Below, one piece after another: positions 8,071 through 57,620 of a stretch of 62,095 bases of DNA (position 1 is its first letter; each line of letters begins with the position of its first letter). The DNA is from Patescibacteria group bacterium (GTDB lineage Bacteria > Patescibacteriota > Minisyncoccia > Phycocordibacterales > JAKFXT01). The stretch covers positions 1 to 62,095 of the forward strand of contig JAKFXT010000005.1 of NCBI GenBank assembly GCA_021731245.1, written 5' to 3'. A program made the translations under genes and the position numbers. The notes beneath the pieces were generated by a model. It saw only the letters and a list, made by a program, of their open reading frames with translations. It was not told the DNA's origin and did no database searches.

Positions 8071-8105
8071 TCCCGCCGAAATGAGATACAGAGCGGGATT
8101 TTTTG
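8071..8105 (+). terminator. rho-independent terminator after rplS
   Basis: Stem TCCCGC ... GCGGGA followed by a T run. Confidence 0.6.
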
Positions 8106-8153
8106 ATTTTACAATTGGTATACGCTATATACTTGAGGTATAATATACTAAAT

Positions 8154-8840
8154 ATGGTAAGAGTGGGAGTAAAACCGAAAGGGAAGGTAACTATAAAATG
8201 GTCAGCAATTTTTGCTTATGCGATTGGGCTTATAGTTTCGGACGGGAATTTATCTTCTGACGGGCGCCATTTGAATCTTACATCTAAAGATAGAGAAGTG
8301 ATTGAGACTTTTCGTAAATGTCTCAATATTAAGAATAAAATTGGTCGGAAAGCACGCAGCGGGAAAATAGAAAAGAAATATTATGTCTTACAATTTGGTG
8401 ATGTAATTTTTTACAGATTTCTTTTAGGAATAGGATTAACTCCAGCAAAATCAAAAACAATTGGAAAAATTGAAATTCCACAGAGATATTTCTTTGATTT
8501 TTTACGAGGATCATTTGACGGAGACGGCTGTTTTTATTCTTATTGGGATCCTCGCTGGAAATCGAGCCACATGTTTTATCTTGCTTTTAGTTCAGCAAGT
8601 AAAATTCATACAGAATGGATAAGAAGAGAAATAGGAAAATTTCTGTTTGTTAGGGGACATGTTTCGAAATCTAAAAGAAAAGGGTCAATTTATAATCTGC
8701 GATATGCAAAAAAAGAATCATTGGAAATTATTAAGAAAATGTACTACAATCCGAAAGTCACTTGTTTGTCTCGAAAAAGAGCAAAAATAAAAAAAGCTCT
8801 TTTGATTGAGAGTGCACAACAAAAGACATATTTTAAGTAA
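8154..8840 (+). CDS. free-standing double-motif LAGLIDADG homing-endonuclease-like protein
   Basis: Has two LAGLIDADG-type motifs (AIGLIVSDGNL and FLRGSFDGDGCF). The ATG at 8154 is preferred to the listed 8103. The gene ends 5 nt before tRNA-Leu. Confidence 0.7.
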   Translation: MVRVGVKPKGKVTIKWSAIFAYAIGLIVSDGNLSSDGRHLNLTSKDREVIETFRKCLNIKNKIGRKARSGKIEKKYYVLQFGDVIFYRFLLGIGLTPAKSKTIGKIEIPQRYFFDFLRGSFDGDGCFYSYWDPRWKSSHMFYLAFSSASKIHTEWIRREIGKFLFVRGHVSKSKRKGSIYNLRYAKKESLEIIKKMYYNPKVTCLSRKRAKIKKALLIESAQQKTYFK

Positions 8841-9089: not shown

Positions 9090-9270
9090 ACCAGAAAAAT
9101 CTCTAAATTTTTTAGAGGTTTTTCTGTGTTTTCGGAGTGATGTAAGCGAGTAAAAAATTTTGCTCGCGCCAGGGAATCGAAAAGCTTTTCATTATTTGTG
9201 AAGAATTTTGTTCTGAACAAATCGAAAAGGTATACTGCTCCTGTAAGGAGAGATTCTGTAGGCACCCCAA
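9090..9270 (+). repeat. about 167-nt structured insert after tRNA-His, ending in a direct repeat of the tRNA-His 3' end (9257..9270 equals 9076..9089)
   Basis: TGTAGGCACCCCAA occurs twice. The insert carries hairpins at 9092..9126 and 9147..9168. It also carries the anti-T-arm box CAGGGAATCGAA at 9170..9181, the exact complement of 9066..9077. Confidence 0.75.
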
Positions 9271-12256: not shown

Positions 12257-12312
12257 CCATAAATAAATGTTTTTATCAGAAATGGCAAGTTCGCCAAGAC
12301 CTGGAGGTGATA

Positions 12313-12516
12313 ATGGTTCGAAGAACGAGGGCACGAGGAGGCAACGGTGTTTTTGACCGAATGCTGACGAAAAGAGGTGGTGAGGTGGATACCTCACCCA
12401 TTCACGGTGGAGCTGGGGGTGAAGGCGAAGACTCCAATGTGGATCATCCGCCAAGAACCATTCGCAGACCGCCGGTACGTTCACGAGGAAATTCTGTCGG
12501 AAAAACGTTCCGTTAG
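12313..12516 (+). CDS. hypothetical Arg/Gly-rich 67-aa protein in a GC-rich island (could instead be non-coding)
   Basis: GGAGG lies 5 nt upstream of the ATG, and the ORF ends just before the terminator at 12535..12563. The composition is low-complexity, so coding status is uncertain. Confidence 0.3.
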   Translation: MVRRTRARGGNGVFDRMLTKRGGEVDTSPIHGGAGGEGEDSNVDHPPRTIRRPPVRSRGNSVGKTFR

Positions 12517-12534
12517 GGACTTTCTGGCATAAAA

Positions 12535-12563
12535 AGGGCCCATGCTTTGCGCTGGGCCTTTTT
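12535..12563. terminator. hairpin terminator (GGGCCC ... GGGCC plus T run; A run on the other side)
   Basis: AAAAAGGGCCCatgctttgcgctGGGCCTTTTT. Confidence 0.6.
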
Positions 12564-12630
12564 AATTTGATTTAATTTTTGTTTTGAATTTTAATAAAGA
12601 CAACTGAACATCAAATAGGAGGGCTTTCCA

Positions 12631-13018: not shown

Positions 13019-13486
13019 ATGAAAAAAGCCTCTTTTACCGAGGGTGAGGACTACAGCACAATGTCCGCCTTTGATTTGGCCAAGGCCGGCTGGCACATTG
13101 GTGTTTCGGAGTTCGGGGACAATTGGATGTTCGCTTTTCGAGAGCCGGTCAAGGGAAGTCCCCGGATCGAGCGCAGGGAAGTTGCGAAAGGATCCAACTT
13201 CCGCCTCGACCACTTCGGGAAGTCCTATTTCCCGGCCTCGGTTCGTGAGATGTCTGATGCCGGCTGGAAATTTCACGTGAAGTGCCGAGGTGGCAATCAG
13301 GGAGCCATCGCAACGGTCATCTTCACTTCTCCGAACGGGAAGCTCACGACGGAGCGTCAAATACCCTTCGCCATGATTCCGCGGCCAGAGCTCAAGCAGG
13401 TGAAGAAAGCCAACTCCACGTGCCGTATCGGCAAAACGGCGCGAGAGCGGGCGGCCAAACGGGAAAGGAGACAGGAAAGAGCGTAA
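13019..13486 (+). CDS. hypothetical 155-aa protein (GC-rich island) with an internal duplicated AGW motif and a basic tail
   Basis: The consensus promoter at 12911 precedes it and a strong terminator (13501..13535) follows. DLAKAGWHIGV and MSDAGWKFHV suggest a two-repeat architecture. Confidence 0.5.
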   Translation: MKKASFTEGEDYSTMSAFDLAKAGWHIGVSEFGDNWMFAFREPVKGSPRIERREVAKGSNFRLDHFGKSYFPASVREMSDAGWKFHVKCRGGNQGAIATVIFTSPNGKLTTERQIPFAMIPRPELKQVKKANSTCRIGKTARERAAKRERRQERA

Positions 13487-13874: not shown

Positions 13875-14420
13875 ATGTCAAAACAACAAACTACAGGTGA
13901 AAGACATTGGTATGCAATTCACACATATGCTGGTTATGAAAATGCTGTGGTCAGAAATTTGAAGCAGCGAATCGACTCTCTTGGAATGGGAGATAAGATT
14001 TTCCAAGTATTGGTTCCTACAGAAAAGAAAATAAAAATAAAAGGCGGAAAGCGTGTAGAGGAAGAAGAAAAGGTTTATCCAGGTTATGTTTTGGTGGATA
14101 TGATTGTAACTGATGACTCTTGGTATGTGGTTCGTAATACTCCTAGAGTTACAGGGTTCGTAGGCTCCGGCGTGCAACCTGTGCCACTTTCTCCAAAAGA
14201 AATTGAAGATCTTTTCAAGAGAATGTCAGTAGATACTGTTAAACACACTATAAATCTTGAAGTTGATGACATAATCACAATTGTAGACGGCCCATTTAAG
14301 GACTTGGAAGGTAAAGTTTCTGAAGTAGATGAAGAAAGGGGCAAGATAAAAGTTCTTGTTTCAATGTTTGGTCGCGAAACACCGGTTGAACTTGATTTCT
14401 TGCAGGTAAAGAAAATATAA
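13875..14420 (+). CDS. nusG: transcription termination/antitermination factor NusG
   Basis: Contains [21 protein letters not shown] and the KOW segment [15 protein letters not shown]. Confidence 0.9.
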
Positions 14421-14456
14421 GCTAGGATTCGAATTCTGAATATAGATTAAATATAT

Positions 14457-14882
14457 ATGGCAAAAAAATTAATTAAAAAAGTAAAAATAAGAGGAATAAT
14501 TGGTGGCCGTGCAACTCCTGCTCCTCCGCTTGGACCAACGCTCGGACAAGCTGGTATAAACATTGGTGATTTTGTAACCAAGTTTAATGATGCGACTAAA
14601 GGAATGATGGGGGAGATTGTGCCAGTTGTTATCTCTGTTTATGAAGATAGAAGTTATGACTTTGTTTTGAAAACCCCTCCTGCAGCAAGTTTGCTTTTAA
14701 AAGCGATAAATAAAGAGAAAGGTTCTGGAAAACCAAATGTAAGTAAAGTTGGTTCAATATCCAAAGCCGATTTGATGGCAATTGCTGAAAAGAAAATGAA
14801 AGATTTGAACGCTCACACTGTGGAGCAGGCAGCAAAGATTCTTGGCGGAAGCGCAAGATCTATGGGGATAGATATTAAATAA
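14457..14882 (+). CDS. rplK: ribosomal protein L11
   Basis: Contains GGRATPAPPLGPTLGQAGINIGDFVTKFN and YEDRSYDFVLKTPPAS. Confidence 0.9.
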   Translation: MAKKLIKKVKIRGIIGGRATPAPPLGPTLGQAGINIGDFVTKFNDATKGMMGEIVPVVISVYEDRSYDFVLKTPPAASLLLKAINKEKGSGKPNVSKVGSISKADLMAIAEKKMKDLNAHTVEQAAKILGGSARSMGIDIK

Positions 14883-14991
14883 TTAATATCTATCGACCTT
14901 TTGAGATATCTTTGCGAATTTTTGAAGCAAAGTATCCAAAAGGTGTACTGTTCCTGTAAGGAATCGACGTGAAATAATTCACGCCGATGAG

Positions 14992-15122
14992 CCGGAGGTC
15001 GACGGACCGAGACGGGTGAGAAACGAATACTTGGAGTTTCGCAAGACCTTGAGCGCCAAAGGGGCGAAAGGTGTTCAGATTCTGTAAGAATCGCGCAAAT
15101 TTTCAGCAGAAAATTATGCGTG
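14992..15122 (+). repeat. GC-rich multi-hairpin element, copy K (expanded)
   Basis: Reads CCGGAG, hairpin GGTC-GACG-GACC, GAGACGGG, extra hairpins, then CGCGCAAATTTTC-AGCA-GAAAATTATGCGTG. See findings for the cross-copy comparison. Confidence 0.65.
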
Positions 15123-15157
15123 AGTTGATATAAAATAATTTACATCTATACAAAAAT

Positions 15158-15195
15158 AAAAAGGCCCAAGATTTAATTTTTGGGCCTTTTTATTT
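15158..15195. terminator. bidirectional terminator between rplK region and folA
   Basis: AAAAAGGCCCAagatttaatttttGGGCCTTTTTATTTTT. Confidence 0.7.
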
Positions 15196-15726
15196 TTCCA
15201 AATTTAGCCAAGTGTATTTGAGGCCGTTATGTTCGCGCAATTCTTCAAAGATTTTTTTGGTGAAAATATGCTCGTAGGGAGGGAAGAAAGAGTCGCTCTT
15301 TTTTTCATCGTCAATAAGGGTTAGGTAAAGATTTGTTACATAGGGAAGAGCCAGAGTATAAATTTGTGCGCCGCCGCCAATAAAAATTTTGTCCGGATTT
15401 ATTTCCTTAGCTTTTTCTAAGGCCTCTTCAAAGGAGTGTGTTATTAAGATGCCTTCATATTTCCACTCTTTGTTTCTAGTAATAACTATGTTTGTTCGTC
15501 CTGGGAGAGGTTTCCCCAAAATTTTTATAATAGACTCAAATGTTTTACGACCCATAATTATTGGGTGACCCAAAGTTAGTTCCTTGAACCTTTTTAAATC
15601 TTCGGGTATATACCAGAGAAGCTCTCCTTCCATACCAATTTCGCGGTTTTTCCCCATGGCGACTACGATACCTATCTCCAAGGTCTTGCCCTCGATATTA
15701 TTTTGTTGTGCCTTTGGGATTTCCAT
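15190..15726 (-). CDS. folA: dihydrofolate reductase
   Basis: IVVAMGKNREIGMEGELLWYIPEDLKRFKELTLGHPIIMGRKTFESI is the DHFR signature. Confidence 0.85.
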   Translation of the reverse strand: MEIPKAQQNNIEGKTLEIGIVVAMGKNREIGMEGELLWYIPEDLKRFKELTLGHPIIMGRKTFESIIKILGKPLPGRTNIVITRNKEWKYEGILITHSFEEALEKAKEINPDKIFIGGGAQIYTLALPYVTNLYLTLIDDEKKSDSFFPPYEHIFTKKIFEELREHNGLKYTWLNLEK

Positions 15727-36873: not shown

Positions 36874-36974
36874 CCCATTGAAAAATTAGGTTTTTAATTA
36901 TCTTAAAATTATATCGTGTCTGGTCTATAGAAAATAGAGTTGATTTATAAGTTTTTTGTTTTCTAGCATGATTG

Positions 36975-37020
36975 GAAAATGAAAAGGACCCACCGGCGAC
37001 GTACTGTCGCGGGTGGGTCC
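36975..37020 (-). terminator. strong rho-independent terminator (minus strand) of the 57-aa peptide gene
   Basis: On the minus strand it reads GGACCCACCCGCGAC-agtac-GTCGCCGGTGGGTCC followed by TTTTCATTTTCC. Confidence 0.75.
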
Positions 37021-37118
37021 CGGTGTGTCGGCCGTCGATGGCCGACGTTGTGGCTCAGGCTGGCCGGCGGAGACCCATTATTGCCCCGGGTACTCCGCTG
37101 CGGTCCCCTCGACCCGGT

Positions 37119-37292
37119 TCAGGAGGTGCGGCGCGCGCCGGTGAGGTTGCCCAAATTGGCGCCGATGCCCTGGCCGATCATGGTCTTGCCCGCGGCGGAC
37201 GCGCCGGCGGCAGTGCTCTTGGCGAAGTTGTCGGTATAAGCGAAAGTTCTCACATTCGGCGGACCTGTGGTGATGCCGTTCAGTTGCTTCAT
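37119..37292 (-). CDS. 57-aa Gly/Ala-rich peptide in a GC-rich cassette (not in the ORF track, below cutoff)
   Basis: Hand translation: MKQLNGITTGPPNVRTFAYTDNFAKSTAAGASAAGKTMIGQGIGANLGNLTGARRTS. A consensus promoter lies upstream and a strong terminator downstream. My hand count gives about 63 percent G+C. Confidence 0.5.
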   Translation of the reverse strand: MKQLNGITTGPPNVRTFAYTDNFAKSTAAGASAAGKTMIGQGIGANLGNLTGARRTS

Positions 37293-37374
37293 GGCTGATG
37301 CCTTTCTGCCCGTTTGGGCGTTGTGGAAGAACGATTTTGAAACTATTCAAACTTCTTTTTGCCTTGCAGACTCC

Positions 37375-37402
37375 ATTATAGCATACCTCCTGTCCTTGTC
37401 AA
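37375..37402 (-). promoter_or_regulatory. consensus sigma-70-type promoter (minus strand)
   Basis: The minus strand reads TTGACA (37402..37397), a 16-nt spacer, then TATAAT (37380..37375). This lies about 80 nt upstream of the peptide ATG. Confidence 0.6.
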
Positions 37403-37593
37403 GTATTCATTTATATTGTCTAAATTTGAGTCCTTTTTCTTCTCTTAGGTCACACTATCCGCCCTTGGCGCACCTTGCGCAGGCCGACTGGGCCGAGCAG
37501 AGAAAATTTTTAGAAAAAAATTATTCGTGTAAGCCAAGGGCGGATAAAAAAGAAATTTTAGGAATATCTTTTTAGATGCGTTTCAAAAAAGTT

Positions 37594-47489: not shown

Positions 47490-47653
47490 ACTTAAATAAT
47501 TTAGTATGGCTTTTCATAAGGCCACTGAGACAATAGGTCATTCGCAAGAATGTAAAAAGTACCTATCGAGAGGTCAAACTCCATTTCTAAGGAGGCCTTA
47601 ATAAAAAGGTCGCTAATTTTTTGTTTTTTAAATTAAACAAAAAAATAAACAAT
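47490..47653 (+). promoter_or_regulatory. candidate promoter plus structured leader of rplJ-rplL (possible L10-type autoregulatory leader)
   Basis: TTGACT, 16 nt, then TAGTAT. Nested stems follow: ATAGGT...ACCTAT enclosing CATTCgcaaGAATG. The function is inferred from position only. Confidence 0.3.
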
Positions 47654-48142
47654 ATGCCTATAAGTAAACAAAAGAAAAAGGAAATCATAGACAAAGCGGA
47701 TAAGATTCTAAAAGAGTCACAGTCGCTAGTTTTTGTTGGCTTCAAAGGACTAAAAGTAAATGATGCGACAGTGATGCGTAAAGAACTTAAGAAAAATAAA
47801 GTTGGTTTTGGTATTATCAAAAAAACTTTATTGCAACGTGCATTGGCTACAACCAAAACAACAGGTGAACAACCTGCTCTTTTAGGAGAAGTCGCTGTTG
47901 CATACGGAGAAGATTTGATTGCACCGGCTCGTGAAGTTTATGCTTTTCAGAAAAAATTCAAAGACAGTTTATCAATTGTCGGTGGAATTTTTGAAGGAAG
48001 ATATATGAGCAAAGAAGAAATGTTATCTATTGCAACAATTCCTTCTCTACAAGTGCTTCATGGTCAATTCGTTAATCTAATAAATTCTCCAATACAAGGA
48101 TTGGTTATAGCTCTTAACGCGATTGCAGATAAGGGAAAGTAA
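47654..48142 (+). CDS. rplJ: ribosomal protein L10
   Basis: Begins MPISKQKKKEIIDKADKILKESQSLVFVGFKGLKVNDATVMRKELKK. The ATG at 47654 is preferred to the listed 47621. Confidence 0.85.
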   Translation: MPISKQKKKEIIDKADKILKESQSLVFVGFKGLKVNDATVMRKELKKNKVGFGIIKKTLLQRALATTKTTGEQPALLGEVAVAYGEDLIAPAREVYAFQKKFKDSLSIVGGIFEGRYMSKEEMLSIATIPSLQVLHGQFVNLINSPIQGLVIALNAIADKGK

Positions 48143-48203
48143 TTGGACGCTTACGCATGAGTTATTACTCAGGCATAAATTAACAAAATAACAAATTAAA
48201 AAT

Positions 48204-48596
48204 ATGTCAGAAGAAAATAAAGTCGTCGAGACACCTTCAAAGTTTAAAGATCTTGTTGGCTCAATCGAAAAAATGAGCGTACTTGATTTACACGAACTCG
48301 TTAAGCATTTGGAAGAGAAGTTTGGAGTTTCAGCCGCCGCTGTTGCCGCTGCTCCTGGGGCTGCTGCGCCTGCTGCAGAAGAGAAGAGTACATATGATGT
48401 GGAACTTAAAGATGCTGGAGCAAACAAAATTGCAATTATCAAAGTTGTAAAAGAAGCTCTTGCTCTTGGACTAGGTGAAGCCAAAGCTCTAGTTGATGGA
48501 GTTCCGTCAATGTTAAAGTCTGGTATGAAGAAAGAAGACGCCGAAGCTCTTAAAAAGAAAATCGAAGAAGCAGGAGGGAAGGTTGATCTTAAATAG
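48204..48596 (+). CDS. rplL: ribosomal protein L7/L12
   Basis: Has an Ala-rich hinge and the C-terminal [27 protein letters not shown]...[17 protein letters not shown]. Confidence 0.9.
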
Positions 48597-48608
48597 ATCA
48601 ACCTTCGA

Positions 48609-48668
48609 CCGGAAGCCCGTAGGGGCTGAGGTGGGGTCGCGCAAAATTCCAGCAGGAATTTATGCGTG
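48609..48668 (+). repeat. GC-rich multi-hairpin element, copy L
   Basis: Reads CCGGAA, hairpin GCCC-GTAG-GGGC, TGAGGTGGGG, then CGCGCAAAATTCC-AGCA-GGAATTTATGCGTG. Confidence 0.65.
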
Positions 48669-48710
48669 ACAAGTAGATTTGAAATAATCCTTTAAAAAGA
48701 TTAAACAAAA

Positions 48711-48745
48711 AAGACCCTAAGGTATACCCCTTAGGGTCTTTTTTG
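48711..48745 (+). terminator. rho-independent terminator after rplL
   Basis: AAGACCCTAAGGtatacccCTTAGGGTCTTTTTT. Confidence 0.8.
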
Positions 48746-51449: not shown

Positions 51450-52519
51450 CTCTTCCAACTGATGTTTACGAAAGACAGAAACCGTAGTTAAAAGGCGATT
51501 GTCCCGGTTTTCCGTGATACCGCCCTAAGGCGGTTTTTTGTTTGTAAAATTTACTGAAAGATTGATATTTGATAAACGAATGCCAGCACACTTTTAAGAC
51601 TTAGGGGTCTTTATTGGATGTGGAGTCTGGAAAAAAGTCCGTTACGCAGGTTTAAAATCGTAGCGGCATTGCTCCGAACTTATTTACAATAAGTTTTGGG
51701 TAACAAGTATCATTGAGTAATATCTCATTCACCCCTCACATGAATTAGTGTTGTTGCCTACAAGATTTTAAAGTTTTGTAATCATCAAACATTTCTTCAG
51801 CAAATTAATATTTTGTAGAGAATTTTTTATAAGCAAACTAGCTTGTAACACTAATTCATGTGAGGGACTCGTTTCTTATGTATCGCCTAGATACATAAAA
51901 AGCAAAAAGTCCTGCATGTAAAAATGCAGGTGACTTCGCAGACGCTTCATTCAATAGGACGTTTGTGGGGTAACGGTTTTTAGATTTCCGCATAGGAAAT
52001 TATAAGAGCGTATGGTGGATGCCTTGGTTTCTAAGAGCGATGAAGGACGTAGCATAACTGCGATAAGCTTCGGGGAGGTGTCGAGCAACCTTTGATCCGG
52101 AGATTTCCGAATGGGGAAACCCCTTTGCATAAAATGCGAAGACTTTCCAACTTGATTGGATTGAGCAGACCCTGTGAAGTGAAACATCTCAGTAACAGGA
52201 GGAAAAGAGAACAATTGTTATTTCGTAAGTAGCGGCGAGCGAACACGAAAAAGCCCAAACCTAACCTTTAATTGAGTCTCCCGTTAAAAGGGGATTCAAT
52301 TAAAGGTTGGGGGTTGTAAGGTGACAACGTGACATTTATGTCAGAAAAGTTAAAAAATTGCATAATAAAAGAATTTGCTGGAAAGCAAAACCCCAGAGGG
52401 TAATAGTCCCGTATTTGAAATTATTGTGATCTTTTTTGTTGTCATTCTTGAGTAACTCAGGACACGAATAGCCTGAGTGAACCCGCCGGAACTAACCGGC
52501 AAGGCTAAATATCTTAGAA

Positions 52520-52565
<46 letters not shown>

Positions 52566-52628
52566 GGTAAAGGGAGTGAAATAGATCTGAAACCATATGT
52601 TTACAAGGAGTCAGCGCCGAGCACCACT

Positions 52629-52910
52629 GTGGGTGTTATATAATTTTAGGCAATAGTATGTTTTATACTTATGTACTTAAAAGTGAAAAAAATTCTTCGC
52701 TCTATATTGGCTTTAGTGCCGATTTAAAAAAGCGGTTAAAAAATCATAACGATGGAAGTGTTGATTCAACAAAACATCAGCGTCCGTGGAAATTGATTTA
52801 TTACGAATCTTTTTTAAATCGAGAACAAGCGCAAAATAGAGAAACAAAACTTAAGCAACGCGGAAGAGCGTGGCAAGAATTGAAGCGAAGAATTTTAATA
52901 TAATATCTAG
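52629..52910 (+). mobile_element. ORF-bearing insertion at the tip of 23S helix 25 (intervening-sequence position)
   Basis: It is bracketed by a perfect 13-bp stem: GCCGAGCACCACT (52616..52628) and AGTGGTGCTCGGC (52911..52923). The flanking sequence aligns with the E. coli region around nt 540-560. Confidence 0.7.
52658..52903 (+). CDS. GIY-YIG (UPF0213/YhbQ-like) nuclease-domain protein encoded inside the 23S insertion
   Basis: MFYTYVLKSEKNSSLYIGFSADLKKRLKNHNDG....RPWKLIYYESF...A..RETKLK is the GIY-YIG signature. Confidence 0.7.
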   Translation: MFYTYVLKSEKNSSLYIGFSADLKKRLKNHNDGSVDSTKHQRPWKLIYYESFLNREQAQNRETKLKQRGRAWQELKRRILI

Positions 52911-54273
52911 AGTGGTGCTCGGCCATGGCGTGCCTATTGAAGAATGAGCCAACGAGTTAATGCAAACTGTTTGACTAAGGGCGCGAGCCTGGAGTCACAG
53001 GGAAACCGAGTGTTAATAGCGCGTCTATAGTATGCATTAGACCCGAAGCCAGGTGAGCTACCCATGAGCAGGGTGAAGTTTGTCGAAAGACAGATGGAGG
53101 CCCGAACCGGTTGGAAGTTCAACCCCATCGGATGACTTGTGGGTAGGAGTGAAAAGCTAATCGAACCTGGTAATAGCTGGTTCTCTCCGAAATATCTTTT
53201 GGGATAGCGTCGTATGGTCCTCTTAGGGGTAGAGCACTGGAAGGATTAAACAGGGAGAAATCTCGTTAATCCTATCAAACTCCGAATACTAAGAGTTATA
53301 GTACGGCAGTAAGACCGTGGGGGCTAAGCTTCACTGGTCTAGAGGGAAAGAGCCCAGATCTCAAGTTAAGGTCCCTAAATTTACGTTAAGTGCGCTTAAG
53401 GAGGTGATTTTTCATTGACAATGAGGATGTTGGCTTAGAAGCAGCCATCATTGAAAGAAAGCGTAACAGCTCACTCATCGAGAGAAGTCGCGCCGCAGAT
53501 AATCGGGGCTAAACGTAGTACCGAAACTGAGGACTTGTTTTGTTTTCGAATGAAACAAGTGGTAGGAGAGCATTCCATTCTGCTATGAAGGAAAAGGGTA
53601 ACCGATTCTGGAGCGTATGGAAGAGAGAATGTTGGCACAAGTAACCACAATGCGGGTGAGAAACCCGCACGCCGTAAGACTAAGGTTTCCTTCGCGATGG
53701 TTATCATCGAAGGGTTAGCCGGGCCTAAGGGGATGGTGAAAACCGAACCCGATGGACATACGATTAATATTTCGTAGCTTTCGCGTGTTTTCGATTGGAG
53801 TGACGGAGGATAAAAGAAAAAGCATCTTATTGGATTGATGTAGAAACCCTTAGCATAGTTTTTGAGGCAAATCCCAAAGACTAGTTTAAATACTAATATG
53901 CGAAAGAATCTAAATGTTTTGGGGCAACCCAAGATTGATTTTTTTGAAGAGCCTTCCCAGAAAAACTTCTAGAGCTAAACATGTGAAATCCGTACCGAAA
54001 ACCGACACAGGTGGTCGAGTCGAGTAGACTAAGGCGAACGAGTGAGATTCCCCCAAGGAACTAGGCAAAAAAGCAGCCGTAAGTTAGCAATAAGGCTTAC
54101 CTCTCGCAAGAGAGGTTTCAACAAAAGTATCTCTGGCGACTGTTTACCAAAAACACAGCTCCCTGCGAACTCGTAAGAGGATGTATAGGGGGTGACGCCT
54201 GACCAATGCCAGAAGGTCAAGTAACGACGTTGTGTGAGTCTTCGGATTTACATGGTGATTGTTATAAGCCCTG

Positions 54274-54308
<35 letters not shown>

Positions 54309-55020
54309 TGGTAACGCTGCCTTAGTAAAATTTAGCTATATGCTGGAATATCTGTGTGTAAAACACTGAAGTATCTGGTACTACTATGGTACAATTATCC
54401 CATAGATAATTATGCCAAGTGAAAAAGTATCCAGTGCAGGCAACCAGCAGGAAAGGCTAGAAATTGAAAATTGGATAGTTGGCTTTGCAGATGGAGAAGG
54501 ATGTTTTACGGTAAGTTTAATAAAAAACAAAACAACCAAATCTGGTTGGCAAGTTTTTCCTGAGTTCGTTGTAACTCAAGGAGCAAAAAGCTTATCGGCA
54601 TTACAACTCATTCAAAAATATTTCCAGATTGGAAATATTTTTATCAATAATCGAAAAGATAATCATAGAGAACCTCTCTATCGTTATTGCGTTCGTTCAA
54701 TTGATGAATTGCAGACAAAAATTATTCCATTTTTTTCTAAAAACAAACTGAGAACAGCAAAAGCAAACGATTTTAAAATTTTTGCTTTTATTGTGAATAT
54801 GCTTGTTAAAAAAGAACATTTTTCTCAAAAAGGAATGCAAAAAATTGCAAAACTTATTGAAACTATGAATCTTAAGAAAAAATCAAGATTTCTAGAATCC
54901 TCAGAGACTACACGCTAGACCTCGCGAAAGCGAGTGAAGATATAGTCCGAACTTTGCAGCGATGCAAAGAATAAAATAGAAATATTTTGTCTCCATTTTA
55001 AGATGGAAGTAACATTTAAG
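54309..55020 (+). mobile_element. group I intron at 23S position 1931 (E. coli numbering)
   Basis: The 5' exon ends ...CGGTCCTAAGGT (U). The intron ends in G, and the 3' exon resumes AGCGAAGTACCTTGTCGGGT. The core-like element GAAGATATAGTCC lies near 54937. The intron contains a LAGLIDADG ORF. Confidence 0.8.
54412..54918 (+). CDS. single-motif LAGLIDADG homing endonuclease (intron-encoded)
   Basis: Has the WIVGFADGEGCF motif. A length of 168 aa is typical of I-CreI-like homodimeric enzymes. Confidence 0.8.
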   Translation: MPSEKVSSAGNQQERLEIENWIVGFADGEGCFTVSLIKNKTTKSGWQVFPEFVVTQGAKSLSALQLIQKYFQIGNIFINNRKDNHREPLYRYCVRSIDELQTKIIPFFSKNKLRTAKANDFKIFAFIVNMLVKKEHFSQKGMQKIAKLIETMNLKKKSRFLESSETTR

Positions 55021-55040
55021 AGCGAAGTACCTTGTCGGGT

Positions 55041-55327
55041 AAGGAATTTGCCCGCTTGCGCCGTAAGGCGCATGAAAAAATCTGCTAAAAACGGTGAAGC
55101 CCAATTTCGGAGTCATAGAAATCAAGGTTTATGATGTTGAAGAAAGGGTAATACCGTGGGAACTATAAAAGTAATTTTATAGACCTGTATCGACTGGAAG
55201 CATTACTTTAAAAAGTAGTGAAGAAGATGGCAAGTACGCAAGAATGTATTGTCATAATACGCAGACATCTTAAAAATCTAAGATGAAGATATAGTCAGTG
55301 CCATTAGTAATAATGGAAGACAACATG
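55041..55327 (+). mobile_element. ORF-less group I intron at 23S position 1951
   Basis: The 5' exon ends ...GTCGGGT (U), the intron ends in G, and the 3' exon resumes AAGTTCCGACGCGCACGAATGGCGTAACGA. GAAGATATAGTC lies at about 55286. The exon between introns 1 and 2 is exactly 20 nt (1932-1951). Confidence 0.75.
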
Positions 55328-55971
55328 AAGTTCCGACGCGCACGAATGGCGTAACGACTGGAGAACTGTCTCGGGGGATGGCTCGGTGAAAATACAATAC
55401 CGGTGAAGATGCCGGTTACCTGCAGCAAGACAGAAAGACCCCAGGAGCTTTACTATAGCTTGAGACTGTACTTACGCGACTGCTGCGTAGCATAGATGGG
55501 AGACTTTGAAGGATTGATTTTGGTTGATCTGGAGTCGTCAGTGAAATACCATTCTGCATTTGTGTAAGTACTAACCATATCGGAAAAAAATGATATGGGA
55601 CACTCTCTGGTGGGTAGTTTGTTTGGGGCGAATCCCTCCTAAAGAGTAACGGAGGGGCTTATTAAGGTCATCTAGGCGCGAATGGAAACCGTGCCGATAG
55701 TGTAATGGCAAAAGATGGCTTGACTGTAAGGGGTGCATCCCGAGCAGGTGCGAAAGCAGAACATAGTGAACCGATGGTCCGCGTTAGATGCGGCCGAAGA
55801 TTAACGGATAAAAGCTACCCTGGGGATAACAGGCTAGTTGTGCCCAAGAGTTCATATCGACGGCACAGTTCGGCACCTCGATGTCGGCTCATCTTATCCT
55901 GGTGGTGGAGAAGCTACCAAGGGTTTGGCTGTTCGCCAATTAAAAAGATACGCGAGCTGGGTTCAAACCGT

Positions 55972-56345
55972 ATAGAAGTTAAAATTTTTAACTTTTTTAC
56001 AGTTTGAATCCGAGGAAAAAGACATTAAATTTAATTTCTGTATTTGAAAAAGTCCCATATTTTGATTTATCAAAATGTGGGTTCTTCCACCAATAAATTT
56101 TGGTGTTAGAAATAGATGAATCAATCAAATCACGGCGGTTGTATAAAGAAATTTATATTAAACCAGTAAACTTATATCGGTGGAATCCAATCTCTTAACA
56201 CGAGAGGATAATACCGAGGGAATTGGCAGCATTAATTTTAATTAATGCGGCACATAGCCCGTAGAGACTAAACGTTTACTACCCACGATGAAAAATATCG
56301 GGGTAATGCTATAGTCCAATGCACGAAGTAATTCGTGGCACCATG
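55972..56345 (+). mobile_element. ORF-less group I intron at 23S position 2593
   Basis: The 5' exon ends ...GAGCTGGGTTCAAACCGT (U), the intron ends in G, and the 3' exon resumes CGTGAGACAGGTTGG. GCTATAGTCC lies at about 56308. Confidence 0.75.
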
Positions 56346-56900
56346 CGTGAGACAGGTTGGTTCTCTATCTGCTGTAGGCGTTGATTCTTGAGAAGACTTG
56401 CTCCTAGTACGAGAGGACCGGAGCGAACTGACCACTGGTCTACCAGTTGTCCTGCCAAGGGCATTGCTGGGTAGCTATGTCGGGAATAGATAACCTCTGA
56501 AAGCATCTAAGAGGGAAGCTAACTTCAAGATTAGGAATCATTATGAGGCTCGTAAGAGATTATTACGTTGATAGGCTTTAGGTGTAAGTGTCGTAAGGCA
56601 TTGAGCCGAGAAGTACTAATTCGCCCAATCCTATGAGGATTTTTGAAAATCGTTTTTACTTTCATACATCGAAATGGTGTATGGAAGATTGAGTGGGATA
56701 TTACTCAATGATACTTGTTAAACCTGCAAAATAATTTAAAGACCCCTAAATTTGTGTGTTTCGTAGAGGGAACTCTCGTCGCCCGTACCTTTCACGGGCC
56801 TTGGCTGTACGGAGAGTAGGCTCGTGCGAGAGAGGGAGGTTTTCATAACTCCCGTTCGCATCTTCTACGAAACACATAAATAAAAAATTCATTTTTTAGT

Positions 56901-57029
56901 GTTGGTGTTTTGACGCAGGGGGCCCGCCTTACAGGCGCAGTACACTTTTCGCATTTTGATTACAAAATGCTCAAAGTTTTGCGAAGCTCCATGTGTTCGC
57001 TTCGCAACCTCTTCCATTCTGACAGAGAA
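56901..57029 (+). pseudogene. 5S rRNA 5'-half relic split by an 82-nt structured insert
   Basis: GTTGGTGTTTTGACGCAGGGGGCC and ACCTCTTCCATTCTGACAGAGAA match the first 55 nt of the intact 5S. They are separated by 56925..57006. No 3' half is present. Confidence 0.6.
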
Positions 57030-57060
57030 TAAAAATGATTATAAAAAATTGAATCTTAAG

Positions 57061-57168
<108 letters not shown>

Positions 57169-57186
57169 TTAATATTCAATTTTTAG

Positions 57187-57312
57187 ATGATACTCTTATG
57201 GGGTGAGGCGCGAACACTTGGAGCGCCGCAAGGCCGGAGCGCGACGGCGCGAGATAGGGCTGAAAGATTTTCTTGCAAGAAAATACTTTTGGCAGTAGGT
57301 AGACGCCAGCAC
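57187..57312 (+). pseudogene. 5S 3'-domain relic carrying element copy S1 (57234..57312)
   Basis: ATGATACTCTTATGGGG and AGTAGGTAGACGCCAGCAC mimic 5S nt 57131..57168. Between them lies about 95 nt containing CCGGAG, hairpin GCGC-GACG-GCGC, GAGATAGGG and an AT-rich hairpin. Confidence 0.65.
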
Positions 57313-57333
57313 TAAGCAATGAATTTTTCTGTA

Positions 57334-57457
57334 AAATACTCTTTAGGGGTTGCCAAGCTGTGGAACAGCTTGGCAAAATCGGAGCGCGACGGCGCGAGAT
57401 AGGGCTGAAAGATTTTTCAGCAGAAAAATACTTTTGGCAGTAGGTAGTCGCCAGAAC
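57334..57457 (+). pseudogene. second 5S 3'-domain relic carrying element copy S2 (57380..57457)
   Basis: ATACTCTTTAGGGG ... AGTAGGTAGTCGCCAGAAC. The core is near-identical to S1, but a different upstream hairpin is present (TTGCCAAGCTG/CAGCTTGGCAA). Confidence 0.65.
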
Positions 57458-57486
57458 ATAGAATTTAATTTTCCGTTCCTTCAATT

Positions 57487-57593
57487 CGGGGTGTAACTCA
57501 GCCTGGTAGAGTTCTCAAACTAGTTTTACCCGGGTGACAACGTCCGGTGCTTAAGTTTGAGGGTTGTCGTGGGTTCAAATCCCACCACCCCGA
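57487..57593 (+). tRNA. tRNA-like gene with a 31-nt insertion in the anticodon arm; isotype uncertain (the loop CTTAAGT would give anticodon UAA)
   Basis: Acceptor CGGGGTG/CACCCCG plus A73, D arm ACTC-AGCCTGGTA-GAGT, and T arm GTGGG-TTCAAAT-CCCAC. The anticodon stem halves CTCAA (57514..57518) and TTGAG (57557..57561) are separated by 38 nt instead of 7. Confidence 0.55.
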
Positions 57594-57596
57594 CCC

Positions 57597-57620
57597 GCCG
57601 GCTTTCGAGCCGGTTTTTTT
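57597..57620 (+). terminator. rho-independent terminator ending the rRNA-tRNA unit
   Basis: CCGGCTttcgAGCCGGTTTTTTT. Confidence 0.75.

Follow-up and report, generated by a model that had tools for sequence, protein, structure and literature searches.

The rplK 3' end carries a stack of structured repeats

We analysed a 62,095-nt stretch of DNA from a Patescibacteria group bacterium (contig JAKFXT010000005.1, assembly GCA_021731245.1; hereafter, the window), focusing on the region downstream of rplK, which encodes ribosomal protein L11. The sequence between the rplK stop codon and the terminator common to rplK and the convergent gene folA (hereafter, the tail, 14883–15138) has no credible open reading frame (ORF), the only one being 30 aa long and on the minus strand. 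The tail is made up of small structured repeat elements without ORFs, stacked one after another, that appear to have colonised the 3' end of rplK. It contains one element of a family termed T1, one element of a second family, T2, split by a nested insertion of "module C" and a T1-like body, and, between them, three 15-nt copies of the rplK end. The T1 core (~70 nt) is a three-way junction with a GUA-loop hairpin, and the T2 core (64 nt) consists of CCGGAG-hairpin-GAGG plus a 16-bp hairpin. The features of the locus are listed below (MFE, minimum free energy).

14457–14882, + strand: rplK, an ORF with Pfam matches to Ribosomal_L11_N and Ribosomal_L11
up to 14882, + strand: gene-end copy X'1, the last 15 nt of rplK, ATAGATATTAAATAA, IDIK*
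14867–14894, + strand: hairpin H0a, GATAGATATTAA-ATAA-TTAATATCTATC, a perfect 12-bp stem that is in the MFE fold, with the stop codon (14880–14882) in the loop
14883–14894, + strand: segment X of the T1 unit, the 3' arm of H0a
14895–14963, + strand: T1 core, with P2 ACCTTTTG/CAAAAGGT around a variable hairpin (14905–14936), the junction (U)GUACUG, and P3 TTCCT-GTA-AGGAA
14963–14977, + strand: second rplK-end copy X'2, ATCGACGTGAAATAA, predicted to read IDVK*
14963–14988, + strand: hairpin H0b, X'2 plus its complement TTCACGCCGAT, 10/11 bp with loop ATAA, the 5' part of the T2 unit
14989–15016, + strand: 5' half of the T2 core, linker GAG and then CCGGAG-GTC-GACG-GAC-CGAGACGGG (hairpin A, with an internal loop)
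15017–15091, + strand: nested insertion in T2, module C and then a T1-like body
15091–15123, + strand: 3' half of the T2 core, hairpin B TCGCGCAAATTTTC-AGCA-GAAAATTATGCGTGA with one bulged A
15124–15138, + strand: third rplK-end copy X'3, GTTGATATAAAATAA, predicted to read VDIK*
15158–15195, both strands: bidirectional intrinsic terminator common to rplK and folA, a 20-bp stem with T-runs on each strand
15190–15726, − strand: folA, convergent to rplK; the identical protein on other contigs is PF00186 DHFR_1

The MFE of positions 14860–15140 was −96.5 kcal/mol, compared with −63.4 ± 4.7 for 200 dinucleotide shuffles (z = −7.1, 0/200), and z reached −9.4 once the terminator was added to the tail. 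The stems of the tail are backed by covariation in homologous copies at other sites. A promoter scan of the tail found no promoter-like site within it. Placed as it is after the stop codon and ahead of the sole terminator, without an internal promoter-like site, the tail is very probably part of the rplK 3' untranslated region (UTR).

A preliminary description of this DNA, made from the letters alone, had reported most of these structures, and all of its hairpins were found again: GATATCTTTGC/GCAAAGTATC (14905–14936), AAAAGGTGTACTG followed by TTCCT-GTA-AGGAA (14938–14963), CGTGAA-ATAA-TTCACG (14968–14983), the repeat it called copy K (14992–15123), and a second AAAGGTGTTCAG followed by ATTCT-GTA-AGAAT (15067–15091), together with a related unit after tRNA-His (9225–9250) and the terminator at 15158–15195. 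It overlooked the perfect 12-bp hairpin (14867–14878/14883–14894) that has the rplK stop codon in its loop. It also took AGGAATCGA (14958–14966) for a string complementary to the tRNA T-loop; this is instead the 3' arm of the GUA hairpin entering ATC GAC, the Ile-Asp codons of a displaced rplK-end copy.

Two covariance models, R1 for the 64-nt T2 core and R2 for the 94-nt T1 unit, showed together with blastn that the tail is composed of dispersed repeat families. R2 matched the T1 of the tail at 88.2 bits (14884–14977). R1 matched the 5' half of the T2 partially (14989–15022/15044), and this half aligns with complete copies; the 3' half scored 37.4 bits over model positions 30–62. In the nested insertion, module C comprises UGAG, the hairpin GAAAC-GAATACTTGGA-GTTTC and GCAAG, and the T1-like body comprises ACCTTGAG, a hairpin, AAAGGTGTTCAG and ATTCT-GTA-AGAAT, with a weak R2 match at 15035–15105. 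The nested composite was matched by blastn at 56928–57009 (minus strand), and module C alone at 57201–57252. As read from the sequence, the three gene-end copies (IDIK*, IDVK* and VDIK*) appear to differ chiefly at third-codon or conservative positions, and X'3 is probably the oldest, displaced rplK end.

Copies of both families elsewhere in the window

A blastn search of the tail against the window returned copies at 9185, 48637, 56927–57009 (minus strand) and 57201. R1 placed T2 at 5949, 48606, 57231, 57376 and 37474 and, in split form, in the tail, and R2 placed T1 at 9171, 14884 and 56911 (minus strand). This amounts to ~10 T1/T2 copies or partial copies per 62 kb, all without an ORF. The scores depended on the strand, with 72–84 bits on the plus strand and 11–14 bits on the minus strand of the same window loci. 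Copies outside the tail are listed below.

5949–6014 (core; unit to 6033), + strand: T2 3' of tRNA-Val, R1 72.6 bits
9170–9270 (model span 9171–9264), + strand: T1 3' of tRNA-His, R2 68.5 bits
48580–48692 (core 48606–48671), + strand: T2 3' of rplL (assigned by Pfam), R1 73.2 bits
57062–57167 (region 56898–57460): 5S rRNA, with element-bearing 5S fragments on both sides
56911–57009, − strand: module C plus T1 unit inside a 5S 5' pseudo-fragment, antisense
57190–57315, + strand: T2 core in a 5S 3' fragment, with module C before the core
57335–57460, + strand: T2 core in a 5S 3' fragment, with a different hairpin before the core
37474–37532: T2 variant in a perfect 13-bp stem that does not come from a neighbouring gene end

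The 3' end of tRNA-Val (5898–5916) is duplicated exactly, over 19 nt, at 6015–6033. In the T1 behind tRNA-His, segment X is CAGGGAATCGA (9170–9180), the complement of the tRNA T-loop and T-stem and an example of the genuine anti-T-loop segments present in tRNA-linked copies; the duplicate of the tRNA 3' end lies at 9250–9270. The rplL copy has its own stop-codon hairpin, AGGTTGATCT/AGATCAACCT around TAG, and a decayed rplL-end copy 3' of the core. The preliminary description had considered the tail a possible graveyard of tRNA-trailer-type modules. The families in the tail are indeed the same as those in tRNA trailers, but "graveyard" is wrong, as the cores are intact, high-scoring and supported by covariation.

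Several observations accompany these copies. The two units downstream of the 5S rRNA are ~145 nt each, with the 5S 3' fragment split by the T2 core, and some of the metagenome copies described below occupy the same antisense 5S position (L160). In the region 36972–37546, the T2-like copy at 37474 is preceded by a sharply GC-rich island (36972–37330) with a small minus-strand ORF rich in Gly and Ala. The tRNA-Leu/tRNA-His cluster that bears a T1 adjoins a free-standing LAGLIDADG_3 ORF (8103–8840), located between rplS and tRNA-Leu, 5 nt upstream of the latter.

The flanks of the elements derive from the target gene

The units follow one order. The gene end X'1 with its stop codon comes first, and then segment X, which is complementary to X'1. 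A short purine-rich linker, which is GA, GAR or GAAAG, or else CGG in some rplK copies, leads to the core, and X'2, another gene-end copy, completes the unit. In tRNA-linked units, X'2 is an exact repeat of 9–48 nt that begins at C56 in the T-loop and reaches the tRNA 3' end or continues past it. The closing stem X:X'2 in 45 copies held 373 Watson-Crick (WC) pairs, 32 G-U pairs, 2 A-C mismatches and 13 other mismatches; the stem-extension rule favours G-U at stem ends, but the bias is also seen at internal positions.

At rplK, X begins right after the stop codon and pairs with the last codons of the gene. A script detected a stop-codon hairpin of 9–12 bp in 22 of the 23 rplK-linked elements; for the remaining one (L190) it returned a 5-bp stem only, the 13-nt loop being over its limit, and a 9-bp stem was read by eye. 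Over all 23, these hairpins comprise 235 WC pairs, 2 G-U pairs and 2 mismatches, and their arms covary between species (for example, GTAGAAGTGC/GCACTTCTAC in L098 and GTGGAAGTGC/GCACTTCCAC in L155). At positions where X matches only one of the live gene and X'2, it sides with the live gene at 17 of 19, and ~7 more positions match neither, by a hand tally of printed positions. X'2 encodes a different but plausible L11 C-terminus in four elements (L030, L065, L190 and L178), which is VEVKG* in L030 and L190, and displaced gene-end copies decay. X thus appears to be coupled to the functional gene copy, with X'2 likely representing a displaced or fossil end.

Simple target-site duplication was rejected as a full explanation of the flanks. 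X agrees with the live gene, and X'2 is often far more diverged; the repeats can be as short as 9 nt or as long as 48 nt, and X itself would be left unexplained.

Elements at rplK are patchily distributed among relatives

Relatives were defined by the best 80 NusG matches in one-genome-per-species contigs, and 78 of these loci include rplK. The records of the 80 name Paceibacteria, Parcubacteria or Patescibacteria, in several cases Ca. (Candidatus) Taylorbacteria, but many Third Party Annotation (TPA) records among them are labelled Saccharibacteria instead. An element is present at rplK in 12 of the 78 related species and absent in 66. T1 directly follows the rplK stop codon in seven (L012, L020, L023, L036, L051, L053 and L059, twice each in L036 and L053) and T2 in five (L004, L030, L064, L065 and L072), with no T1 or T2 elsewhere within ±4 kb of nusG in the relatives. 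An intrinsic terminator lies 3' of the elements in the relatives inspected, and apparent remnants were seen at rplK in L021, L046 and L058.

In a NusG+L11 tree the carriers are scattered, and sister species (L010, L039, L045 and L015) are without the element. The closest relatives of the window (L006 and L002) have no element either, only a terminator after rplK. In the syntenic comparison suggested by the preliminary description, the hairpins were thus not conserved by descent in close relatives, but the same families were found repeatedly at the same site. Repeated occupation without conservation by descent therefore points to gain and loss.

The tail had been described as lying where rplA, the gene for ribosomal protein L1, normally sits. 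This position is uninformative, as L1 follows rplK in none of the 78 related loci; ten L1-sized same-strand ORFs after rplK belong to other families (Vut_1, F420_ligase, NUDIX, thymidylate kinase etc.). The rplJ-rplL genes located elsewhere in the window (47621–48596) are also without L1. Loss of L1 in a Parcubacteria subgroup has been published (Brown et al. 2015, as cited in bioRxiv 10.1101/2022.01.07.475337). The absence of rplA is a lineage trait unrelated to the tail, and the tail is no substitute for L1.

These data bear on whether the tail could be a regulatory 3' UTR or small RNA specific to the secE-nusG-rplK operon, for example an L11-binding mimic that assumed autoregulation once L1 had been lost. 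The location directly 3' of rplK in a lineage without L1, the high degree of structure and the sequestering of the stop codon in a hairpin would all suit such a role. Against it, the element is absent at 66 of the 78 relatives, which are likewise without L1. A blastn search of the tail found nothing in the 23S rRNA of the window (51989–56639), a comparison at the sequence level only, so the L11-binding mimic was dropped. No L1, L10 or L11 operon leader RNA was detected at gathering cut-offs in the window or at E ≤ 10 in 14400–15300, and the element is 3' of rplK, whereas ribosomal protein leaders sit 5' of the regulated gene. The earlier proposal of a 3' UTR or non-coding RNA (ncRNA) of this operon thus very probably stands as to the 3' UTR, but the RNA is not operon-specific, because L006 and L002 carry the terminator alone after rplK, because two unrelated cores use the same site in different lineages, and because the same cores also lie 3' of tRNA, transfer-messenger RNA (tmRNA), 5S and rplL genes. 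A regulatory role specific to rplK is close to refuted.

An assembly artefact, i.e., a chimeric join at repeats or the loss of rplA by misassembly, was also weighed. Short-read assemblies of the same strain (Logan contigs L204 and L205) end 96–99 nt past the folA stop codon, inside the T2 of the tail, and the same-strain NusG contig ends within rplK. Such breaks are expected because the tail is repetitive. In 35 of the 78 related species, folA is likewise found downstream of rplK and convergent to it, so the rplK/folA junction is genuine synteny and not a misassembly. The same architecture was moreover assembled independently in many samples, and both the absence of L1 after rplK in all relatives and its published loss speak against the loss of rplA by misassembly. 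We regard an artefact as hardly credible.

Genomic contexts in metagenomes

A T2 pattern search of metagenomes matched at least 120 stretches, giving 116 distinct contexts among the matches listed. Within this set, a same-strand tRNA lies ≤300 nt upstream in 46 contexts (40%) and an L11 gene end lies upstream in 10 (9%). A 5' tRNA fragment followed by module C and the core, ahead of an intact tRNA, accounts for 10 of the 116. Smaller groups are found beside 5S (n = 4), with an opposite-strand tRNA only (n = 4) or at a contig edge (n = 5). One T2 copy is 3' of a tmRNA. In other Paceibacteria, the two families are thus found behind rplK, tRNA and tmRNA genes. Units also occur in series: L036 has identical units in tandem, L053 and L161 each have two that differ, and L197 has tandem arrays. 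Like the nested copy in the tail, these series are signs of repeated insertion.

A phage or plasmid vector was considered and set aside: the T2 pattern had no match in viral contigs, and two T1-pattern matches were chance occurrences in coding sequence.

Two further arrangements were seen in the tRNA-linked copies. In L083, L102, L104, L132/L154 and L172, module C and T2 are joined to a 5' tRNA fragment that extends as far as the D-arm or anticodon loop, and an intact tRNA lies 80–150 nt downstream, mirroring the arrangement at 3' ends. Many tRNA-linked T2 copies (L179, L200, L114, L113, L082 and L183) share a conserved trailer hairpin, "module D", between the tRNA 3' end and X, with a ~7-bp stem and a GGGA/GGAT-type loop, often after ATGAT. 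It lies ~40–90 nt upstream of the T2 core, and the full unit may thus reach ~150 nt.

The tRNA contexts raise the question of integrase-type insertion scars, that is, miniature elements flanked by attachment (att) sites, like cis-mobilisable elements, with the recombinase encoded elsewhere. The direct repeats would then be attL/attR cores in the target 3' end, and stacking would be accretion at one att site. The segment from the T-loop to the tRNA 3' end is a classic sublocation of tyrosine-integrase sites, and the repeats begin at the fixed C56 of the T-loop and extend to the tRNA 3' end. That tmRNA is also a target, that gene-end copies separate stacked units (in the tail of the window, L036, L053 and L161), and that X'2 often resembles another allele of the gene end, as an element-borne copy would, are consistent with this origin. 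It is nevertheless quite improbable in our judgement. The units are 65–150 nt long without an ORF, and no integrase domain was found in the scanned ORFs of the window. Double-stranded circles of ~100 bp are physically implausible. A conserved recombinase-binding sequence is lacking, since the arms differ from locus to locus, and such an origin would explain neither the inverted copy X nor why the cores covary in the manner of RNA.

The cores are probably constrained as single-stranded structures

Across 121 T2 sequences, 97.2% of cells are paired and compensatory changes occur in 20 of 22 pairs; the covariation score is 0.545, compared with 0.174 for shuffled and ≤0.097 for slid alignments. 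One T2 pair is G-U in 98 of 113 sequences. For T1 (21 sequences), 94.3% are paired, 18 of 20 pairs show compensatory changes, and the score is 0.556 versus 0.183. Conserved G-U pairs together with the strand-specific scores indicate that the constraint acts on the sense single strand, most simply RNA.

T1 and T2 have no counterpart in Rfam 15, either in the whole window at gathering thresholds or in permissive scans of four stretches, and the tail gives terminator look-alikes only. A literature search found no description of these elements. Self-cleaving ribozymes (hammerhead, twister, twister-sister, pistol, hatchet and HDV-like, i.e., like that of hepatitis delta virus) were not detected in permissive Rfam scans (E up to 5–10) that covered the tail, the intact T2 copy (48560–48720) and the 5S region.

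Three resemblances were pursued and rejected. CGAUGAG...GAAAC at 14985–15024 looks like a hammerhead by eye, but no model supports it and homologous copies are without it. The string CCGGAGC...GCAAGGCC...AUAGGG, which resembles part of Escherichia coli RNase P RNA, was dropped because a permissive scan of 56860–57620 gave no RNase P match. The CUGUAAG loop of T1 recalls the tRNA-Tyr anticodon loop, but it closes to a GUA triloop; the remainder is not tRNA-like, and ARAGORN finds nothing there.

The chief rival explanation draws on the same folds. T1 and T2 might be host-functional 3'-end modules, RNA domains kept for the benefit of the host behind highly expressed stable-RNA and ribosomal protein genes, where they may define, protect or process the 3' end; X may clamp the 3' end of the gene, and X'2 may be an internal decoy that lets the upstream tRNA still fold. 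The strong selection on the core folds fits this, as do a closing stem that accepts G-U and almost never A-C, an X that remains complementary to the live gene, a stop-codon hairpin that covaries perfectly between species, and a position always in sense orientation between gene end and terminator. However, only ~15% of related species have the rplK element, and sister species manage without it. Two unrelated cores are interchangeable at one site, the nested, tandem and antisense copies in 5S fragments resemble accumulation, and the displaced gene-end copies decay. We consider host modules for 3'-end handling unlikely on balance; there is nonetheless real room for them, because the folds are strongly selected and complementarity to the live gene is maintained.

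Other features of the window

The 23S rRNA (51989–56639) is 4651 nt long, compared with the 2925-nt model, and has several insertions, including a group I intron (55031–55317) and a LAGLIDADG_1 ORF (54412–54918). It is bracketed by a 31-nt inverted repeat, 94% complementary (51701–51731/56690–56720), in the manner of a processing stem. A tRNA at 57487–57593 (107 nt; Rfam 42.6 bits) is missed by ARAGORN and has an apparent ~32-nt insert in the anticodon arm. The stretch 12280–12565 is GC-rich and ORF-poor over ~250 nt, ends in a strong terminator (12536–12565) and has no Rfam match at permissive thresholds; it is a candidate ncRNA. Beside it, a 155-aa ORF (13019–13486) has no Pfam match.

T1 and T2 as putative mobile elements

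We propose that T1 and T2 are an undescribed type of mobile structured element, non-autonomous and transcribed together with the upstream gene, a reading to which we give a probability of roughly 0.6. Non-autonomous mobility is suggested because the elements are multi-copy, form nested, tandem and stacked units, have a patchy phylogeny and exact repeats, coincide with assembly breaks and have no ORF. Having no promoter of their own, they would be transcribed by read-through from a strongly expressed upstream gene to its terminator, and their fold would be kept on the sense single strand, most simply as RNA. Each arrival would carry or regenerate the last codons and the stop codon, keeping the host gene intact, and would shift the earlier gene end downstream, which could account for the three rplK-end copies in the tail. 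The stack may have built up from an original rplK end, X'3, that was displaced by the T2 unit; T2 would later have received the nested insertion, and the T1 unit would have displaced T2. The outcome at rplK would be a structured 3' UTR of 275 nt, with the stop codon enclosed in its first hairpin. Three mechanisms are candidates, all of them speculative. One is a crossover of the integrase kind at the left edge of the gene-end segment, another runs through a single-stranded intermediate, circular or snapped back, with a stem of X and the carried gene end, and the third is templated correction of a quasi-palindrome.

A more specific and rather improbable version is that T1 and T2 represent a new protein-less, RNA-borne class of mobile elements of candidate phyla radiation (CPR) bacteria, with X as a guide that pairs with the target 3' end. 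Such elements would travel on transcripts from the genes with the highest expression, through a small single-stranded intermediate (RNA or complementary DNA), possibly circular or snapped back, that is closed by the stem of X and the carried gene-end copy. On arrival, the element would swap the last codons or the tRNA 3' end for its own copy, displacing the resident. This would explain together the covarying hairpin of gene end and X, the divergent coding-like downstream copies and the stacking of units.

Several points weigh against the mobile-element reading in general. No transposase, integrase or reverse transcriptase was found among the scanned ORFs of the window, where the relevant matches were RecA, RuvX, FtsK and LAGLIDADG proteins (free-standing and intron-encoded) only, with no integrase or recombinase domain. 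Mobility is read from the distribution of the copies; empty and filled alleles of the same strain were not found, the exact L11 protein not being on record and the strain contigs breaking at the locus. We know of no mechanism that yields both inverted and direct target copies around an insert, and the repeats, at 9–48 nt, do not resemble the target-site duplications made by transposases. Strong purifying selection on the fold, the bias of G-U over A-C and the constant sense orientation fit a host-used RNA equally well. The covariation alignments were fitted to the covariance models themselves, the T2 search pattern fixed several loop bases, so that their conservation is partly by construction, and 37 of the 116 T2 contexts among the matches listed fall into no category.

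Comparison with known systems

The putative mobile elements were compared with known small repeats. Repetitive extragenic palindromic (REP) sequences and bacterial interspersed mosaic elements (BIME), and the Correia elements, or Neisseria miniature insertion sequences (NEMIS), are likewise short, ORF-less, multi-copy, hairpin-forming and non-autonomous, and lie between gene end and terminator, co-transcribed with the upstream gene. In those families, terminal sequences or inverted repeats are conserved, and target duplications are either short and fixed or missing, whereas the outer stems of T1 and T2 are locus-specific and copied from the target 3' end, the cores are three-way junctions with RNA-type covariation, and the targets are specifically tRNA, tmRNA, 5S, rplK and rplL ends. 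As for miniature inverted-repeat transposable elements, T1 and T2 share multiple copies, non-coding content and patchy distribution, but they have neither conserved terminal inverted repeats (the outer stems are the local gene end and its complement) nor a fixed-length target duplication. The integron attC core R''/R' (RYYYAAC ... GTTRRRY) is not found; the stems follow the gene end, e.g., GATAGATATTAA, CGTAAACGTGGA and CATTGAAGTGAT, without a consensus. Rickettsia palindromic elements are also small palindromic selfish repeats of a reduced genome, found at essential or RNA genes without destroying them. They insert in frame and are translated, whereas T1 and T2 start at the stop codon or immediately ahead of it, provide or preserve a stop, and have target-derived stems.

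Integrative elements of tRNA and tmRNA genes resemble T1 and T2 in the direct repeat from T-loop to 3' end, the intact upstream gene and the stacking at one site. They span kilobases, whereas T1 and T2 are 65–150 nt without an integrase gene, have an extra inverted target copy, and also hit the stop codons of protein genes and 5S. The P1/P10 helices of group I introns offer a resemblance only: at its 5' edge the insert has a segment that is complementary to the end of the upstream "exon" and can also pair with the sequence after the insert. T1 and T2 are without the catalytic core P3–P9 (the sole RF00028 match in the window is the intron at 55031–55317 in 23S), measure 64–95 nt and have duplicated flanks, and the upstream gene is complete, so splicing is unneeded.

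A likeness in concept only exists with the dual guides of tandem interspaced guide RNA (TIGR)-Tas systems and with IS110 bridge RNAs, in which a scaffold presents two segments jointly complementary to both strands of a site. TIGR systems do occur in CPR bacteria, as 36-nt dual-spacer units in long arrays beside a tas (Nop-domain) gene (PMC12045711). T1 and T2 units are 64–95 nt, solitary or in stacks of two or three, with no repeat array in the window and no associated gene. IS110 bridge RNAs lie inside the element beside the recombinase gene, in contrast to the solitary T1 and T2.

Implications

Small intergenic repeats are a known kind of element; new here are the target-derived stems, the fixed stop-codon hairpin and the specificity for gene 3' ends. 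To our knowledge, no known element gives inverted and direct copies of the target 3' end around an insert together with a hairpin that has the stop codon in its loop. The analysis removes the false lead of an RNA standing in for L1, and the repeats explain assembly breaks at rplK, tRNA and 5S loci in these genomes. It adds two covariation-supported motifs, absent from Rfam 15 and present in well over 100 metagenome contigs, that make up a visible fraction of very small genomes. The displaced gene-end copies are a record of earlier or foreign 3'-end alleles of rplK and tRNA genes. If T1 and T2 are RNA-mediated or guide-bearing, their mechanism would be new; should they serve the host instead, they would amount to a new kind of module for the 3' ends of stable RNAs under a reduced RNA-processing toolkit.

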